Made by a program: the position numbers and the translations under genes
Notes under the pieces: generated by a model
Told to the model about the DNA's origin: nothing
The model's database searches: none
What the model saw: the letters and a program-made list of their open reading frames with translations, nothing else
Shown: positions 802-16,200 of the stretch, one piece after another
How positions within the stretch are numbered: position 1 is the stretch's first letter
Layout of the letters: every line of letters starts with the position of its first letter
From: a virus
Lineage: Duplodnaviria; Heunggongvirae; Uroviricota; Caudoviricetes
IMG/VR virus record: IMGVR_UViG_2579778842_000004
Length of the DNA stretch: 16,811 nucleotides
Strand: one strand, 5' to 3'

Positions 802-896
802 TGCGTCACCTTTTACGCTGCGCCTTATTTTGTGATTGAGCCAGGCGGTAAGGCTTCCCGCTTTTCGCCCCGTCGAGCTAGGCTCAATCTATTCAG

Positions 897-2156
897 TTAG
901 TTCGCCCTTCTGAGAGGCGTTACGTTGTAGTCTTTTCCGCTTTCCAGTGCCACCAGCAGATCAGCCCACTGTGCCAGTGCTGCTTTACGCTCATCAAAAT
1001 ACTGATGGCGGTTATAAATCCCCTCTACGCCCTTAATGCGATGATTGAGGCATCGTTCCGCCACAACAGGATCAACACCCAACGCTGCTAAATGAGTACG
1101 TGCGGTGCGTCGGAAGTCGTGAATCGTGAAATTAGGCACATCCGGCATTTCGGCGCGAACCTTAGCCAGTGCTACGGGTAAAGTGCTTTCCTGAATATGT
1201 GGGATCATTCTGTTTTGCATCTTCCTGGCCGGAAGCACCCATGCGCTATTACATGAAAAGGTGTGTAGCTCTCTCAACCATTCAACGGCTGGGGAAGGTA
1301 GAGGTATATCAATAGGGTCTCCGTTTTTGCTGCGTTCTTCCGGCAAATGCCATACCGCACCATCTAAATCAAACTCTTCCCATCGTGCGGCGCATAACTC
1401 CATCTTACGAACGCATAGTGCCAGCAATAGCTTAAATGTCAGTTCGTTCTGGCGGCTGAATCCTTTTGCGGTGCGCATAGCCTCGAATAGCCTGATAAGC
1501 TCATCGCGAGTTAGCCAACGGTCGCGGGAAACCTCTTTACCACCAGCATCAGATACTTCAAACGCTGAACAAGGGTTTATCTCCAGAGCGTGGCGTTTTA
1601 TCCCATAGTCAAAGATACGGCGTGTCCAGCGTAATACATCTGTTGCTATCGTTGGTGCTCCTCGGTCAACGATACCTTTCAACATGTCGTCAATGTGGCG
1701 TGGCTTAACGTCCTCTACCTTCATATGCCCAATGCAGGGGTTAATATCCTTATCAATTCTCCGGCGAAGGATATCGGGATGTTTCCATCTCGGAAGTATC
1801 TGGCGCTCGAAGTATTCGGAGGCCAGATCTGAAACACGCATGGCGTTTTTCTCAGCCTCCATTTTTGCCAGTGCTTCAGCTTTTCGTTCCTGTTTCTCTG
1901 CTGCTACGTCATAGCCAAGAGCAACTCTGGCTGACAGCTCTTTTGCTGTTTCTCTGGCTTTTGATAGTGACAGTTCGGAGTAAGAGCCTATAACCATAGC
2001 CCGCTGCTTTCCTGCGAGCTTATAGCGGAATCGCCAGAACGGGACTGTGTAGTTTTTGGGGTAGCAAATATAAAGGCCGTTGCCGTCTGCCTTGCCATCA
2101 AATCTGTCTCCCGCCTTTATCCATGCGCGGATCTGCATATCTGTGAGTTTTGGCAT
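897..2156 (-). CDS. int: Tyrosine recombinase / integrase, P4-type (N-terminal arm-binding domain plus catalytic domain)
   Basis: N-terminus MPKLTDMQIRAWIKAG...DGNGLYICYPKNYTVPFWRFRYKLAGKQRAMVIGSY is typical of P4-family integrases. C-terminal catalytic motifs HDFRRTARTHLAALG and LNHRIKGVEGIYNRHQY (R...HxxR...Y). Start placed at the internal ATG (2156) rather than the track start 2240, because 2157-2240 is occupied by TGTACA repeats. Confidence 0.88.
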   Translation of the reverse strand: MPKLTDMQIRAWIKAGDRFDGKADGNGLYICYPKNYTVPFWRFRYKLAGKQRAMVIGSYSELSLSKARETAKELSARVALGYDVAAEKQERKAEALAKMEAEKNAMRVSDLASEYFERQILPRWKHPDILRRRIDKDINPCIGHMKVEDVKPRHIDDMLKGIVDRGAPTIATDVLRWTRRIFDYGIKRHALEINPCSAFEVSDAGGKEVSRDRWLTRDELIRLFEAMRTAKGFSRQNELTFKLLLALCVRKMELCAARWEEFDLDGAVWHLPEERSKNGDPIDIPLPSPAVEWLRELHTFSCNSAWVLPARKMQNRMIPHIQESTLPVALAKVRAEMPDVPNFTIHDFRRTARTHLAALGVDPVVAERCLNHRIKGVEGIYNRHQYFDERKAALAQWADLLVALESGKDYNVTPLRRAN

Positions 2157-2185
2157 TGCGAATACCTGAATATCGAATATGGGTG

Positions 2186-2236
2186 TGTACATAAAGCAAT
2201 GTACATGAAAGTCATTATGTACACCTCTATGTACAC
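2186..2236. promoter_or_regulatory. Array of four (A)TGTACA(C/T) repeats just upstream of int
   Basis: tgtacat 2186, atgtacat 2199, atgtacac 2216, atgtacac 2229, spaced 13-17 bp. TGTACA is self-complementary. Candidate operator or arm-type sites. Confidence 0.4.
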
Positions 2237-2281
2237 GCATATTGTGCGCTTTGTTGCGTCGTTATGATAGCTCATGATAAC

Positions 2282-2874: not shown

Positions 2875-3162
2875 TTACTGTCTCTGGCAATCTTTATCGC
2901 GATAACGCCTGAAGTACCCTCTCGCTTCCTCATCCATACCAAGAGCCGAATGAGTCCGCTTAACTGCCTGTCTTAAATCTCCGAATCTGTCTGTAGTTGC
3001 TGGTGGGCGTGCCGCCTTACGGATACATTCAGAGCGTCTGTTTGCTGCATGTTCACGTTCTTTATCGCCATCTGCCAGCATCATGACTTCTGCCCATCGT
3101 GCGGCAGCTCTCCGGTATAGCCCTTTTGACTCCAGCTCTTCAGCTTTCCTGTCCCTTATCAT
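2875..3162 (-). CDS. Small basic regulator, PerC/ANR-family-like (tentative)
   Basis: 95 aa, MIRDRKAEELESKGLYRRAAARWAEVMM... matches my recollection of the N-terminal pattern of PerC-type small activators; GAGAGG 6 nt upstream of ATG. Family assignment is from memory, not a search. Confidence 0.55.
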   Translation of the reverse strand: MIRDRKAEELESKGLYRRAAARWAEVMMLADGDKEREHAANRRSECIRKAARPPATTDRFGDLRQAVKRTHSALGMDEEARGYFRRYRDKDCQRQ

Positions 3163-5332: not shown

Positions 5333-7348
5333 TTATTGAGCTTCCTTTTGCGATGCTTGTGCTGCTGTGGTCAGTGATTGTGTGACCGTACTGATCGCTC
5401 TGTCATATGCTGTGCTACCTTTTGGCGTATTTGCCAGACGTAACAAGGCATTTCGTATAACAGGGCTTTCGTATGCCTTCGCTGCTCCGCCTACGGCACC
5501 AGCAGCAGGAACAACAAACGCAGCCGTTTTTAGCATCCCCGCTAATACTGCTGCGTTTATGATGCCACCACCAACTAACAATCCATAAAGCTGCTGACCA
5601 TTTAAGTTTTGAACGTTCGCTTTTGCCGCGTGTCTTGTATCGTTGAGGTATTTAATAACGCCGTCCAGTTCCTTTCCATGTACGCCTTTAAAGAAAGTTG
5701 CTGATTGCTTCCTGTTCCGGTGTAACGCATTAATAAACTTCTCAACACTGATATTTCCAGACGGATCAGTCGCCTTATCTACAGCATTCTGAACTATGGC
5801 TGCTCGTGCGTTTTGCCTACCATTGTCATCCAGAAGCCTGTAAAGCTGAGAACGTTCTGATGGGCTTTGGCTAAAAACGAGTTTTGTTACATCCTCAGGC
5901 GTGGCCTTGCCGCTGGCTATTGCCTTTTGAACGCGCGTTCTTCCCATCATGTCATTGAATTTAGACCATGAGCGATCAACCCTTGCCATATTAATGGCTT
6001 CGTCTGCTCCAAGATTTTTGGCTACGGCTTTTTTCATATCCGCCGTATATGCCTTGTAGATAATATCGCTGGCTTTCTGGAGCGTATCTTTATCAACAGT
6101 GTCAGATGACGCCATAAATCGCTTTCGAAGATCGGTTCTGTTTTCCCTCGCCAGACGCAGGTCATTTGGTCCGCTGGTGATATCGTCTTTAAATTGCTGC
6201 AAGACTTTTACCGCGGCTCTATCCTGAGATTTGCCCGGGCGGCTTAACACGGCAATCTGATTGTCGATAGCTTTTACCGTGTTTGAGAGATCGACAGGGG
6301 TATCCCCCATAGCGTCAATTATGCGGTTATATCGCTTTCCTGCTGCCTCAATGAATTTTTGTTGCCCTTTAGTCGCAGATTCATAAAGCTGTTTATCAGA
6401 AATGCCACCCAGACCATCGCTAAATGTTCTGACTAAATTTTCTCGTGCTTGTTGTTGATTCAGCCGATTCTTACCGGTTCCAAAAAAAGGAACTCTTTCG
6501 CCTAATGTCTGAGCCTGACTCTGCATAAAGGTTTTATCTTTCAGCATGTCACTGGTCATTAACGGTAGGTTTCTTTCCGATGCAAAATCAACAGCGGCTT
6601 TCGCTTCCGGTGCCATATCACCGCGAACGGCCCTCGAAACGGCACTCACTGTATTCTCCAGACCCTTACCAATGCCGCCAATGCCAGCAGAGATTACCGT
6701 TTGTAACGGATCAATATCTTCTCCACCAGCAAGGCTGGTGGCTCCCTGTAGTGCTAAATCTGTAGCTGCTGATTTCCCTATGGCCCCCAGCACCGTTCCG
6801 GCCCTGCCCGCTGGTGTAAACGCCAGCGCATTAGCCAGAAACGATGCCACGTCTTGCGGCGATAAACCCGGCTTGTTCAGAGCATAATCACCGGATGGTA
6901 GGGAAACGATAGTGTTACCCTTCTCATCCTGCCTTAATTTCGCTCCCATGCTCTGAAGAATCTTTTCCTGAGATGCGTCAGAGCCGAAAAGTTGAGACCA
7001 TCGAGCTTTTAGAGCATCCATGCTGAGTGAGGTTAACTCTGGGGCAAGGTCGACATTTTGCAGTCTCTCCATCTCTGGAGTCATTCGGCTTTCGCCTGTT
7101 ATAGCATCGCGCATCGCAGCCCCAAGGCTGGCTCCCTGTTCTGCTGAACGCTCAAGCCCCTCTCTTTGCTGAGTAGCTAACTTTGCATACCCTGACGCAA
7201 GAGAGTTGTCTGCTGGCGATTGCTGAACACCTTGTTGTGTTGGTGCTGACTGACCAGCAAAATACTCATCAATGGCGGTGCCAATATCTTCGGTGCTCGT
7301 ACCATCAGGGAAGGTAAATGTCTTACCGTTTGCAGTTACTTTCATCAT
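5333..7348 (-). CDS. Large (671 aa) Ala/Gln/Gly-rich, largely helical-looking protein with C-terminal hydrophobic segment; function unknown
   Basis: Start overlaps the upstream stop (ATGA at 7348-7345). C-terminal [40 protein letters not shown] is membrane-like. No enzymatic motif recognised. Confidence 0.8.
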
Positions 7349-8736
7349 TCCACCGTAAATTGAATGCCTGATTTTGACGTGTAGCTACCTCCTGCTGATT
7401 GCTGAGTAGCTGGCTGTTGCCTTGATGATTTCTTCCCGCCATTACCGACATTAACGTTATATTGCTGGTTGTAATTGTCGGTATATTGCTGAATGTCGCG
7501 CATTGATTGTTGTAGTGCTTCAGGGCTTGAGAAATCAGGCTTTGGCATACCTTGAAAATACCTATTGGCCTCTGCTTCGGTGTTGATGCCAGATGCCCCC
7601 ATATCTCGGGCTGCCGCAATCCCCTGATTTTGCATTTTGCCCAGGATTCGCTGTGCAGCGTTGTATAGCCTCCTCTCCTCAGCACCAGATGCCCGGCTAC
7701 GAATATCTGCACCAAGAGCAAAAGAACCTGAAGAACCAGTAATACCTGTCATGAAGCCAATATCGTCAATTGATGCGCCAGAAATTGCCTCAAGATCTTT
7801 CTTCATTTCGTAATTCTGCGCATTAGCTGCCGACGTGGCCGGAGCAGCAATAGAGCCAGCTGGAACGCGAACTATGTTCCCCTCATTGTCTATACCTTCG
7901 TAGAACGCGTTAGCACCAGCACCATGAAGTTTCCCGCCTACGGTTACAGTTCTTCCGTCTGCTAGTTGAACTGTGCGCTCATTATTCCCAACCGCCCCTT
8001 TCATTGATGTTCTCTGCATCGCTAAATCCTGACCGCGCATCGTGATGTTCTGTCCTCGTGCTGTTAGCGCCTCGCCAGCCTGATTGCTGCGGATTGTCTC
8101 TGCCAACTTGTCACGCTCAATATCCCGACCTTCCATTTGATCTTTGATATCGAAGTACTTCTCATGGCCGAGAGAAAACAGTGCCAGATTACCTGCGAAG
8201 TGCTGGAAGCCCTGCGGGTCATTAACCTGCATTTCAGCAATAGTTTCTGGAGGGATACCTAAACGACGCATCTCCTTTTCGTTATCCATCATGAACCTGC
8301 CAAATGCGCCCGGACCAAGCGACGAAGCTACCTGTGCTTTAAGCGCCAGATTGCCAAAATCATCCCGCTGGGCGTCATCGACATACCCCATGCCTTTACG
8401 GACTTCCTCAAACTCTTCTGGGAATGCTGTAATAAGATTACGCATCTTCTCCCTGTCGCCGGACGCATAAGCATCTGCATAACCTTTCTGGAATGCCGCT
8501 TTACGCTCCTGCTGTTGCTGCTGCTTATAAATATCAGCAACTCCAGCCAGACCACGAAGACCTGTCAGAGCAACGTTATTTGCACCTGATCGAGCCAGTT
8601 CATTGTTTTCGCGGATCAGACCAAGCGTTGCGTTAATGTCGCTTGCCTTTGGCGCATTCTCATTTTGCGTACCGATGCCAGCCAGAAAACCACCAGAATT
8701 AATACCCTGTTGCCACGTAGCCATTGATTTACCCAC
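7345..8736 (-). CDS. Large (about 460 aa) low-complexity Gly/Ala/Gln/Asn-rich protein; function unknown
   Basis: Long ORF, translationally coupled to the 671-aa gene. Track start is GTG 8736; ATG at 8724 ([12 protein letters not shown]...) is an alternative. Confidence 0.78.
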
Positions 8737-13741: not shown

Positions 13742-14551
13742 GTGCCACCTCCATGCGGATACGACCAGCAAAAAAGCAGACGTGATCGCGCACCAGAGAA
13801 CGGCGAGCATCGCGTTCAGACTCGGCAGCAATATGATGAATTTTGGCGGTAATTGTCGGGCAATCGCGGCGAACTGCGGCGATAATCCAGATAAATTGCG
13901 GTTTTTGGGTAGGGGTAGTAGCCAGCATGTGGCAGCCTCCTTGATTGATGGTTTATAGCCACCGCCGGAGGTCCTAAGCTCGCTGGCGGTGGACTGTACA
14001 GGGTTAGGACTACTGGCAATCAAGGAAACCAGCCTGACCGAAGTCAGCCCCATACAGCCCACCATTGATAAGGTGTGCGTGTGCGCCGATACAAAAAAAG
14101 ACGCTGGCGCGTCATGTATCGCCTCGATTGCCTGCGGGGTCCTAATCCCGGCACCCGTTTTATGAGGTGCCTTATAACCATAAACCGTGTTGCCGCATAA
14201 CGGCAAGCTCTTTTTTATGGACTCCGAAAACTCACTATTGGAAGCACCAGATGCACAATACATCGCGCTCATTTCGTTAACGTCACGCACGTGGACGAAT
14301 GTTTTTGTGGAGTCACTACACGAGCAGAACAGGTGATCTACGACCAGAAATTCTCTGGCGCAGCCGCTGACCTTCTCAACGCTAACACCATCGACCGTAA
14401 TTTCTGACATAGTTAAGGCATCCGCTCCTACCACCAGCAAATGATAAACTTTGCTTGTATCTGCTGTATTAATGCCTGACTTTGCTGTCATATTGCTGGA
14501 TTTTGGCGACATACCAGCCAGTGAAAATGTCTTCTTCTGGACGGTTAGCAT
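13523..14551 (-). CDS. Long uninterrupted open frame (342 codons); N-terminal about 150 codons look coding, middle section coincides with RNA structures; possibly composite or frameshifted
   Basis: ATG 14551 has GGAGG 7 nt upstream and overlaps the upstream stop (ATGCTAA). No in-frame stop until 13523; a T7 run sits at 14099-14093. Alternative annotation is the two small ORFs listed separately. Confidence 0.3.
13734..13928 (-). CDS. Small basic hypothetical protein (64 aa)
   Basis: ATG 13928 preceded by textbook SD AAGGAGG (13942-13936, 7-nt spacer). The SD lies in the 3' arm of a predicted RNA stem. Confidence 0.45.
   Translation of the reverse strand: MLATTPTQKPQFIWIIAAVRRDCPTITAKIHHIAAESERDARRSLVRDHVCFFAGRIRMEVAHD
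13936..14113 (-). promoter_or_regulatory. Structured RNA leader/attenuator-like region (minus-strand transcript)
   Basis: 5' to 3' on the minus strand: hairpin GACGC-GCCA-GCGUC then U7 (14113-14093); CUGAC-UUCG-GUCAG tetraloop hairpin (14047-14034); 9-bp long-range stem CCUUGAUUG (14025-14017) pairing CAAUCAAGG (13947-13939), which contains the SD of the 13928 ORF and encloses an 8-bp hairpin CCACCGCC/GGCGGUGG (13992-13959). Confidence 0.4.
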
Positions 14552-14727
14552 TTGTTAACCTCCGCGAACTCCTTCATGAAACGCGCCAGCGGTTGTACGC
14601 ATGGCGATTGATACCCGTCGCGATAGAACGTCACTCGGTTGTGAGACACGCTTTCGACAGTAACGAGTGCTCCGTGGGCATCTTTGTAGCGTTTTTGAGG
14701 TTGTGGTGTTCCTGTAGGCTTAAACAT
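14545..14727 (-). CDS. Small hypothetical protein (60 aa)
   Basis: ATG 14727 with GGAGG 6 nt upstream, 4 nt after the AntA-like stop (MFKPTGTPQPQKRYKDAHGALVTVESV...). The track start 14814 would overlap the upstream gene. Confidence 0.5.
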   Translation of the reverse strand: MFKPTGTPQPQKRYKDAHGALVTVESVSHNRVTFYRDGYQSPCVQPLARFMKEFAEVNKC

Positions 14728-15553
14728 GGACCGCCTCCAGACGCTTAGCGAGCCAGCGTTGCGACAGGCGGGTGAGTTCTCCTTTGCGCTGCTCATATTC
14801 CATGCCCATATCAATTAACGTGATATTGGTGCTTTCGAGATATGAGAGGTGCTCAAGTTGTTCTGCGTTCATATGGTCGCGAGGTTCGCCAGAATAGCCA
14901 TTTATCCGCGCCCACTGCTTAGCAGTTAGCCCACCAAGAACGATACGAGAAATCATATTGCTCTCGTTTGTGTAGTGGTGTTGCTGCGTCGTTTTCCCCT
15001 GCTCGGCACGGGCCATATTCAGCGCATCGCACATTGGCTTAAAGTTGTTTGCGGCACTGATACGGGCTTTTAGCTGGCGACGATAGCGGGCGGCGATTTC
15101 AGGAACGCTACGCTGTAATTCTTCCTCGCACTGGATGAAATAACGGCGGATAGCGCGCCCCTGATCATTGCGTTCGATCATTGCCAGTTCTTTCGCCATT
15201 CCGACACTTAACAGATAGTCTTTGCCGGGTCTGCCAGAGTGCTTAATCTTGCTGTAAGCCGTGCCATTCGGGCTTTTCCCCAAATTTGGGGAAATTGTTT
15301 TATGGACTGAGTAATCGTGCCCAATGGTGAAGTCATATTCAGAGATGCGATCAGTGATCCATGTAGAGAAGTCTTTTCCCACGCCCAACGCTTTGTGTAA
15401 CGCTTTTGCGCTAACAATATTGGTTTCACGCCCACCGATATGACCAGGAATAACCGGGACAATTGCGGCAAATTCATTACCGTTAATTGTGCCCAGAGAG
15501 GCGTTCAGATGAGGGGCGGCCTCAGAAATTAATCTGCTTTTTTCGATGTTCAT
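14720..15553 (-). CDS. Phage antirepressor-like protein (AntA-type N-terminal domain)
   Basis: 277 aa; N-terminal segment ...NIVSAKALHKALGVGKDFSTWITDRISEYDFTIGHDY... matches the AntA/Bro-type signature as I recall it; GGAGA 7 nt upstream. Confidence 0.7.
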   Translation of the reverse strand: MNIEKSRLISEAAPHLNASLGTINGNEFAAIVPVIPGHIGGRETNIVSAKALHKALGVGKDFSTWITDRISEYDFTIGHDYSVHKTISPNLGKSPNGTAYSKIKHSGRPGKDYLLSVGMAKELAMIERNDQGRAIRRYFIQCEEELQRSVPEIAARYRRQLKARISAANNFKPMCDALNMARAEQGKTTQQHHYTNESNMISRIVLGGLTAKQWARINGYSGEPRDHMNAEQLEHLSYLESTNITLIDMGMEYEQRKGELTRLSQRWLAKRLEAVHV

Positions 15554-15565
15554 TTTCAGTCTCCG

Positions 15566-15997
15566 TTAGGCGGCGTTAAACGCGTTCGGGTAGAGTTTCA
15601 GAATGTCGGCAATTTCCTGCTGAGAAAGTCCGTTGTGATCATTTATGTTCGCAAGATGGTTAACATGAGTGATCACTTTCAGAACATCACCACGGCAGGA
15701 GAAACGGTAGCGAAGGTGTGTTCCGATACCATCAGGATTCTTTTCGTCGATACGCTCCAGAGTGATTCCAAGCTGGCGTTCTAACTCTGTTGCATAGTTA
15801 CGACCAGAAGACAGACGGCAGTAGCGAAGAATGTCATTTTCTGTCCATCCCTCTATACCAGTACGCAGCATATAGACTCTGGCACGATGCTTTTTCGGTG
15901 TGCGCTTTGGTTCTTGAAGGGATTTTGTAAGGGGCGTAACATCAGATACGCGAATATCTGAATTAGCCGCCTGTAATGGGCGGTTTTTCTTTTCCAT
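15566..15997 (-). CDS. Hypothetical protein (143 aa), translationally coupled to the AlpA-like gene
   Basis: ATG overlaps the AlpA-like stop (TGATG); AAGGTGG 5 nt upstream. Confidence 0.6.
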   Translation of the reverse strand: MEKKNRPLQAANSDIRVSDVTPLTKSLQEPKRTPKKHRARVYMLRTGIEGWTENDILRYCRLSSGRNYATELERQLGITLERIDEKNPDGIGTHLRYRFSCRGDVLKVITHVNHLANINDHNGLSQQEIADILKLYPNAFNAA

Positions 15998-16200
15998 CAG
16001 GCCACCTTCCCGCGGCGTTCTGCCAGCCAGTTGTGAATCTCAACCGCATCAAACGCAGTTATTTTTTCTCCCAGCTTTACCGGACGTGGTAGTGAACCGT
16101 TTCTTACTTTACGGTCGATGGTGGATACACTAACGCCCAGCAATTCAGCCAGGCGGAAGCGTCTGATATAGCCTTTTGTAGGAATAGTGTCGGTGTTCAT
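15997..16200 (-). CDS. alpA: AlpA-family / excisionase-type helix-turn-helix regulator
   Basis: 67 aa; RFRLAELLGVSVSTIDRKVRNGSLPRPVKLGEKITAFDAVEIHNWL fits the AlpA/Xis HTH pattern; first gene of the long minus-strand operon. Confidence 0.75.
   Translation of the reverse strand: MNTDTIPTKGYIRRFRLAELLGVSVSTIDRKVRNGSLPRPVKLGEKITAFDAVEIHNWLAERRGKVA

Follow-up and report, generated by a model that had tools for sequence, protein, structure and literature searches.

A probable P4-like immunity module of IsrK- and C4-family RNAs in a satellite-like element of Escherichia coli

In satellite phage P4, a constitutive promoter lies within the eta gene and the CI RNA is processed from its transcript; Kil, which is nested in eta, is translated only upon read-through, and when eta is translated from an upstream promoter, termination is averted (PMC10111431). 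The IsrK and C4 RNAs correspond to the seqA and CI RNA of P4 (PMC3632133; PMC4825925), and the IsrK RNA of the Salmonella prophage Gifsy-1 activates rather than represses (PMC4825925). Here we describe a related region on the minus strand of the IMG/VR virus record IMGVR_UViG_2579778842_000004, the whole 16,811-nt stretch of which we refer to as the window. An earlier note on this DNA had proposed a structured RNA leader with a hidden Shine-Dalgarno (SD) sequence and an internal terminator-like hairpin. The region very probably serves a P4-like satellite or phage-inducible chromosomal island (PICI) integrated in E. coli as its module for immunity (lysogeny maintenance), and by sequence comparison it is homologous part for part to P_LE-seqA-t1-cI-seqC-kil of P4 and to a1/b1-c4-a2/b2-icd of P1. 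Such a module is already known in kind, as Rfam has curated entries for both families and the literature describes IsrK and C4 in this P4-like role. What carries the assignment here is RNA family membership, structure, complementarity with covariation, gene order, and a conserved open frame.

An Rfam scan of the window identified two RNAs one after the other on the minus strand (Table 1). The upstream RNA matches isrK (RF01394) with 63 bits against a gathering score of 50 (E = 1e-11), and the downstream RNA matches the C4 antisense RNA (RF01695) with 80.2 bits against 45 (E = 1e-14). Both matches are full length, spanning model positions 1-77 of 77 and 1-87 of 87, respectively. The leader shows the layout of isrK, with two 5' hairpins followed by a Rho-independent terminator, and the C4 segment adopts the Y-shape of its family, in which a long outer stem encloses a tetraloop hairpin and a large-loop hairpin; this Y-shape is also the minimum free energy (MFE) fold of the segment taken alone (13982..14069; z = -4.42). 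The trinucleotide CCA (13986..13984) stands directly 3' of the outer stem and resembles a tRNA 3' end, a hint from the sequence only, and a tRNA/tmRNA scan gave no match. When P4 was scanned likewise, the same two matches appeared in the same order, with isrK at the leader (8692..8615; 60.8 bits) and C4 at the CI RNA (8507..8420; 74.9 bits).

The earlier note had remarked on an unusual density of structure and had suggested folding, an Rfam scan, and covariation analysis as checks, all of which were run. The 256-nt transcript 14175..13920 folds with z = -4.69, a stability matched by none of 200 shuffles, and two families exceed their gathering scores, so the density is indeed above chance. The individual elements also held up: the hairpin with U7 on the minus strand is the IsrK/seqA terminator, the UUCG-tetraloop hairpin is the first internal hairpin of C4, and the 8-bp hairpin displays an antisense target, a2. 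The structures are, however, those of two known RNAs plus their target sites rather than of one novel leader fold, and the region, although structured as claimed, is not purely non-coding because it lies within an eta-like open frame.

The C4 RNA is complementary to sites on both sides of it. Its 12-nt loop, b', pairs throughout with b2, making 12 pairs that take in the whole SD sequence AAGGAGG of an icd/kil-like gene, and the same loop is also complementary to b1 in the isrK-like leader. Within b':b2, CCUUGAUUG (14025..14017) and CAAUCAAGG (13947..13939) are complementary over 9 nt, and the latter overlaps the SD. The junction strand a' (GUCCUAA) is complementary to both copies of UUAGGAC, a1 and a2, with seven of seven pairs formed in a':a2. 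Within the window, the a and b motifs are confined to these sites, and CAATCRAGG occurs three times in the 16.8 kb, only as b1, b' (reverse complement), and b2, compared with 0.32 expected occurrences. The resulting order a1, b1, C4, a2, b2, icd is the order annotated for P1 immI in its GenBank record, and, as in the C4 family, a second copy of the target (a1/b1) is present on the same transcript upstream of the RNA.

To examine covariation, we used the downstream Icd-like protein as bait to collect 19 genomic loci from Enterobacteriaceae and 80 viral-contig loci, and aligned 72 distinct versions of the module, including P4, an Stx2 phage, and a P1-like phage. C4 lies ≈53 nt upstream of the icd ATG in all 19 genomic loci, and isrK is present in 18 of them. 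Across the alignment, 99.8% of cells in the isrK and C4 stems are paired, with changes on both sides in 20 of 42 pairs, whereas sliding the 3' partners by 1-3 columns leaves only 35-51% paired. In C4 alone, pairing at the 27 pairs runs from 99.8 to 100%, and both sides have changed in 14 of these pairs, including eight of the 17 pairs in the outer stem and all five in hairpin 1. The leader terminator is kept in 72 of 72 homologues, five of which carry a GC-to-CG swap.

The antisense contacts covary as well. Pairing is complete for a1:a' (100%; six of seven pairs with changes on both sides) and for a':a2 (100% in 72 of 72 sequences, again with six of seven pairs changed on both sides), and it reaches 94.1% for b1:b' (eight of nine pairs) and 99.3% for the a2 hairpin (four of eight). 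The 12-bp b':b2 contact is 86.9% paired overall, with changes on both sides in eight of its 12 pairs; in its 8-bp core (columns 285-292 with 368-375), no pair is unpaired in more than three of the 72 sequences, and six pairs have changes on both sides, in 17-40 sequences. We distinguished 10 a' types and 21 b' types in 29 (a',b') combinations, and these types always vary in step with their targets; the window combines a' GUCCUAA with b' CCUUGAUU, and another type reads, for example, ACGCCAA/CCGAUAAC. Each C4 pairs with its cognate targets at an average of 14.79 of 15 positions, versus 10.13 of 15 for non-cognate targets. As far as sequence comparison goes, an antisense RNA that sets immunity groups by its specificity should leave just such a pattern. 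Together with the C4 and isrK matches and the Kil/Icd homologue, these covarying targets bear out the suggestion in the earlier note of a P4 CI-like immunity or attenuation region, or a processed small RNA.

In most homologues, an additional segment of 39 nt lies between terminator and C4 (alignment A1, columns ~203-240; e.g. positions 1298-1336 of locus L008) that forms a hairpin with a UAUAAU loop, a sequence that could alternatively be a -10 box. The segment is missing from the window (~14070-14075), the Stx2 phage, the P1-like phage, and a few others. Because 39 is a multiple of three, the frame running through the RNAs is kept.

Table 1. Features of the module and their coordinates in the window.
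Feature	Position	Strand	Sequence or pairing	Basis or remark
Putative constitutive promoter, P4 P_LE counterpart	14177..14206	minus	-35 TTGCCG (14206..14201), 18-nt spacer, -10 TATGGT (14182..14177)	inferred
Leader RNA, IsrK-like / P4 seqA-like	14094..14170	minus		Rfam RF01394; stems 99-100% paired, compensatory changes
Leader hairpin 1	14170..14151	minus		
Leader hairpin 2	14150..14135	minus		a1 in loop
a1	14145..14139	minus	UUAGGAC	loop of leader hairpin 2
b1	14130..14122	minus	CAAUCGAGG	between leader hairpin 2 and terminator
Rho-independent terminator, P4 t1 counterpart	14093..14113	minus	GACGC-GCCA-GCGUC (14113..14100), U7 (14099..14093)	terminator scan
Helix enclosing the terminator	14086..14121	minus	CGAUACA (14121..14115) with UGUAUCG (14092..14086)	part of MFE fold
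C4 / P4 CI-type antisense RNA	13982..14069	minus		Rfam RF01695
C4 outer stem, 17 bp	14064..14048 with 14003..13987	minus		
C4 hairpin 1	14047..14034	minus	CUGAC-UUCG-GUCAG	UUCG tetraloop
C4 hairpin 2	14033..14012	minus	UUUCCUUGAUUG (14028..14017)	12-nt b' loop
a' junction strand of C4	14010..14004	minus	GUCCUAA	
a2-displaying hairpin, 8 bp	13959..13992	minus	CCACCGCC (13992..13985) / GGCGGUGG (13966..13959)	
a2	13977..13971	minus	UUAGGAC	loop of 8-bp hairpin
b2	13936..13947	minus	CAAUCAAGGAGG	contains SD AAGGAGG (13942..13936) of icd/kil-like gene
Icd/Kil-like gene, 64 aa	13734..13928	minus		NCBIfam NF033153, E = 3.7e-20
Eta-like open frame, 342 aa	13523..14551	minus		Pfam PF10554 ("Ash")

Downstream of the RNAs, translation begins with the Icd/Kil-like gene, which is also the gene under the module's predicted control. 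Its 64-aa product scores 71.7 bits against NF033153 (cut-off 25), between P4 Kil (76.1) and P1 Icd (52.6), and is 39% identical to P4 Kil. A second, longer frame of 342 aa runs through the entire module: its start overlaps the stop of an upstream DUF4222 gene (ATGCTAA), and it crosses the promoter, both RNAs, and icd, the last in another frame, before it enters a 72-aa downstream ORF. Residues 124-219 of this frame (nt 14182..13895) match PF10554 (Phage_ASH) with 54.1 bits against a cut-off of 26, and the eta frame of P4 matches the same domain with 82.2 bits over seqA-cI-seqC (P4 8330-8704, minus strand), so that in both cases the span of the Ash domain coincides with the RNA module. A conserved "protein" motif of the Ash family such as GYSAPAKSGAG is the translation of promoter and leader hairpin. 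The RNA-spanning frame is open in 69 of 73 distinct homologues despite indels, although not in the Stx2 or P1-like phages, and we rejected the notion that it is a purely spurious ORF because of this conservation and its fit to the read-through role of P4 eta.

The nesting of kil within the eta frame seen in P4 was not found in the window, where the frame ends 205 nt past the icd stop. A 1-nt indel immediately before the icd ATG (13926-13935) accounts for the difference in phase between the window frame and icd. The two forms of this indel, GCCA-CATG and GCCATCATG (A1 columns ~379-386), split the homologues into two classes, both of which keep the frame open: in 31 homologues, the frame is nested in frame with icd/kil as in P4, and in 38, including the window, it passes icd in another frame without meeting a stop and ends 160-205 nt beyond the icd stop. 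RefSeq annotation of the region is inconsistent. One genome has a 342-aa "ash family protein" assigned by the Prokaryotic Genome Annotation Pipeline (PGAP), another has a pseudogene plus an Icd-like gene, and the RNAs are left unannotated.

Transcription of the leader probably starts at G14170, downstream of a putative promoter whose -10 element, TATGGT, aligns with the TATAGT preceding the P4 leader; the T-A-n-n-n-T pattern is invariant in the 72 homologues. The terminator hairpin and its U-run are enclosed by a further helix (Table 1), which is therefore possible only in read-through transcripts. This helix is paired in 92.7% of cells across the 72 homologues, with some change on both sides in six of seven pairs, and it might represent a processing site or influence the efficiency of the terminator. 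Farther downstream, CCACC is used both by the base of the C4 stem (GGUGG:CCACC) and by the 5' arm of the a2 hairpin, making the two folds mutually exclusive. Both of them covary, which results in three-way covariation of columns 251, 318, and 355. This arrangement suggests a structural switch between precursor and processed RNA.

The resemblance to P4 extends to the details of the module. In both, a1 occupies the loop of hairpin 2, b1 precedes the terminator, a2 is displayed by the hairpin loop that follows the antisense RNA, and b2 lies on the SD; the controlled gene belongs to the Kil/Icd family, an eta/Ash frame crosses the RNAs, and the surrounding satellite encodes AlpA and a primase. P4 differs in specificity, with a' UUCUCAC and b' CCUGUGAA. 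The window, for its part, has no 39-nt UAUAAU-loop hairpin, fuses its eta-like frame to the next ORF, encodes a Toprim/DUF927-type primase, and carries P22-type ejection genes. The immI region of P1/P7 shares the order of elements (NC_005856) and the placement of b2 over the icd ribosome-binding site, and a P1-like phage is 80% identical to the window over the module. In P1, however, icd is coupled to the antirepressor gene ant, whereas the window has an AntA/B-family gene upstream and replication genes downstream; c4 of P1 is also under C1 operator control, and P1-like phages have no eta-like frame over the RNAs.

The isrK/STnc1160/orf45/anrP locus of Salmonella Gifsy-1 is built similarly: an isrK-family leader carries a terminator of its own, transcripts that pass it continue into a C4-like RNA (STnc1160), and a small ORF is coupled to genes farther downstream. 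It differs from the window in that the downstream gene encodes an antirepressor in a lambdoid prophage and the short RNA has been shown to activate orf45-anrP translation. For the isrK family, Hfq binding and trans-activation of the read-through mRNA have experimental backing from Gifsy-1 only. The closest module in sequence belongs to Stx2-converting phages (e.g. F039, LC710660; L003 2500-3389), which are ≈90% identical to the window over isrK-C4-SD and have identical a'/b' segments. The record of such a phage already annotates both RNAs as ncRNAs, "isrK" and "C4 antisense RNA"; in contrast to the window, the controlled gene in these phages encodes a 215-aa Rha-family regulator, and no frame crosses the RNAs. 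A ≈90% identical module is found in dozens of Stx2a-converting phages.

For processing, action in trans, termination, and escape through translation, we draw on P4 and P1, and the following scheme is to be understood as an analogy to them. A weak constitutive promoter (~14206..14177) would initiate the transcript at ~14170, and most transcripts would end at the hairpin and U7, yielding a 77-nt IsrK/seqA-like RNA that bears a1 and b1. Read-through transcripts would carry the C4/CI-like RNA (14069..13982), which would be excised as a stable ≈80-nt RNA; as in the C4 family, 5' processing by RNase P into a stable, trans-acting RNA of ≈77-80 nt is predicted. The targets of C4 would then be nascent or read-through mRNAs, with its b' loop binding b2 and its a' junction binding a2. 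Pairing with b2 would cover the icd/kil-like SD and prevent translation, and the untranslated RNA would be prematurely terminated, keeping the downstream replication genes, including that of the 920-aa primase, switched off. Pairing of C4 with a1 and b1 may in addition feed back on termination at U7, the short leader RNA may titrate C4, or both. In P4, CI together with seqA reportedly enhances termination at t1; titration of C4 by the leader RNA, for its part, would be consistent with IsrK acting as an activator in Gifsy-1. Where transcription starts at an upstream promoter and the module is translated throughout as the eta-like ORF, the transcripts would escape this control.

Several observations weigh against this interpretation. 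The RNA ends, processing, termination, and action in trans rest on homology. The c4-a1b1 motif (RF03163) scored below its cut-off in the window (14.8 versus 46.7 bits), although that model also falls short on P4 itself (44.1 bits). We rejected filing the region under c4-a1b1 on account of the sub-threshold score; a1 and b1 sites are present all the same, and isrK describes the region better. A consensus promoter scan upstream of the leader made no call; the candidate was sub-threshold and fits only eight of 12 consensus positions, a weak match, so that its assignment rests on the alignment with P4 and on conservation. Two features depart from P4: the eta-like frame of the window is not in phase with kil/icd, and only 24 nt separate the terminator from C4, compared with 107 nt in P4. 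Finally, the homologous IsrK of Gifsy-1 is an activator, which makes the sign of the leader RNA's contribution uncertain.

We weighed this interpretation against three others. The region could instead be a purely cis-acting leader or attenuator, as the earlier note had envisaged, in which CCUUGAUUG and CAAUCAAGG of one transcript form a 9-bp stem that encloses the 8-bp hairpin and occludes the SD, and in which no trans-acting RNA takes part. The complementarity on which this idea builds is real and covaries, and covariation is blind to whether pairing occurs in cis or in trans; moreover, the MFE fold of the full read-through transcript pairs a' and b' of C4 with a1 and b1 in cis, and cis structures of such a kind have been demonstrated for the Gifsy-1 isrK mRNA. 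The long-range stem, however, appears in neither the MFE nor the centroid fold of 13925..14113, both of which give the C4 Y-shape, and for this reason we discarded it as the principal structure. Covariation and the Rfam model lend the C4 fold strong support, the duplication of the targets on both sides of C4 makes sense for a diffusible antisense RNA, and P1 C4 and P4 CI work in trans (P1 record annotation; PMC10111431). We consequently regard a leader acting only in cis as improbable. The 9-bp complementarity is better read as the loop-to-target contact b':b2 of an antisense RNA, which by homology would be made in trans after processing.

A second possibility, to which we give even less credence, is an activating switch like that of Gifsy-1, in which a translationally silent read-through mRNA would be opened in trans by the short terminated leader RNA, allowing the small ORF and its coupled genes to be translated, and C4 would be of secondary importance. 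The leader matches isrK over its full length, the mechanism has been shown experimentally at the homologous Gifsy-1 locus, and the specificity of a1/b1 equals that of a2/b2, which would make the short RNA at the least a competitor for C4. Yet the window matches P4 and not Gifsy-1 in its order of genes, its Icd/Kil gene, its eta-like frame, and its satellite context, and the strict three-way covariation (a'/a1/a2 and b'/b1/b2) centers on C4. The activating and C4 models are nevertheless compatible, since titration of C4 by the leader RNA would yield net activation. There is, last, next to no chance that the region is plain protein-coding sequence (an "Ash family protein") whose RNA-like structure is incidental. 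The 342-aa frame, its PGAP annotation as ash, its Pfam match, and its maintenance among homologues despite indels all speak for coding. On the other hand, paired positions change together, and the 29 (a',b') combinations rewrite the encoded residues; the promoter and U7 terminator lie within the frame; and outside the RNA genes, the protein is poorly conserved and varies greatly in length and sequence. Stx2 and P1-like phages have the same RNAs and no such frame, and the read-through role of P4 eta explains an open frame that coexists with the RNAs.

The surroundings of the proposed immunity module are those of an integrated element. Upstream on the same strand are genes for AlpA (15997-16200), an AntA/B-family protein (14720..15553), and the DUF4222 protein, and downstream are small ORFs followed by the 920-aa Toprim/DUF927 primase. 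Identical sequence occurs in E. coli chromosomes, within P4-like islands adjoining an integrase, and a 701-nt region around the module is matched in 947 of 5,426 complete E. coli genomes. At the end of the window opposite to AlpA, an int-alpA RNA (RF02996; 60.6 bits) at 822-888 (minus strand) lies just 3' of a gene for a 447-aa tyrosine integrase (897-2240, minus strand); because the integrase adjoins AlpA in related genomes, the window integrase probably begins a second island in tandem. The minus strand also encodes a P22-type injectosome translocase at 7345-8736 (Pfam Inj_translocase; E = 1e-83), an adjoining 671-aa ORF without a family match at 5333-7348, and a PerC-family activator at 2875-3162. 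These look like captured podovirus late genes and hint at a short-tailed helper phage.

The C4 specificity of the window, CCTTGATTGCCAGTAGTCCTAACCC, is found in identical form in 11 IMG/VR contigs (L108-L118), eight of which have it preceding the 215-aa Rha-family regulator (lambdoid/Stx-like phages) and three preceding an icd-like gene. This shared a'/b' specificity and the P22/podovirus-type ejection genes mean that a line of communication between helper and satellite could exist; that the sharing with Stx2/lambdoid phages reflects such a line is an unlikely proposition. If it were true, the C4 of a helper prophage would silence the satellite, or the C4 of the satellite would hold down the regulator of the helper. 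A burst of a1/b1 leader RNA upon helper induction would titrate C4 and release both, and which partners communicate would depend on how recombination combines the a' types (10) and b' types (21).

Current mechanistic understanding is unchanged by these results. For annotation, they mean that a structured RNA module has been filed as a protein, with the Pfam Ash domain coinciding with RNA genes. For the biology of the element, the module would act as the switch holding a widespread E. coli satellite in quiescence, and its modular a/b code (29 combinations in 72 sequences) would define immunity groups, with possible cross-talk to Stx2 phages.

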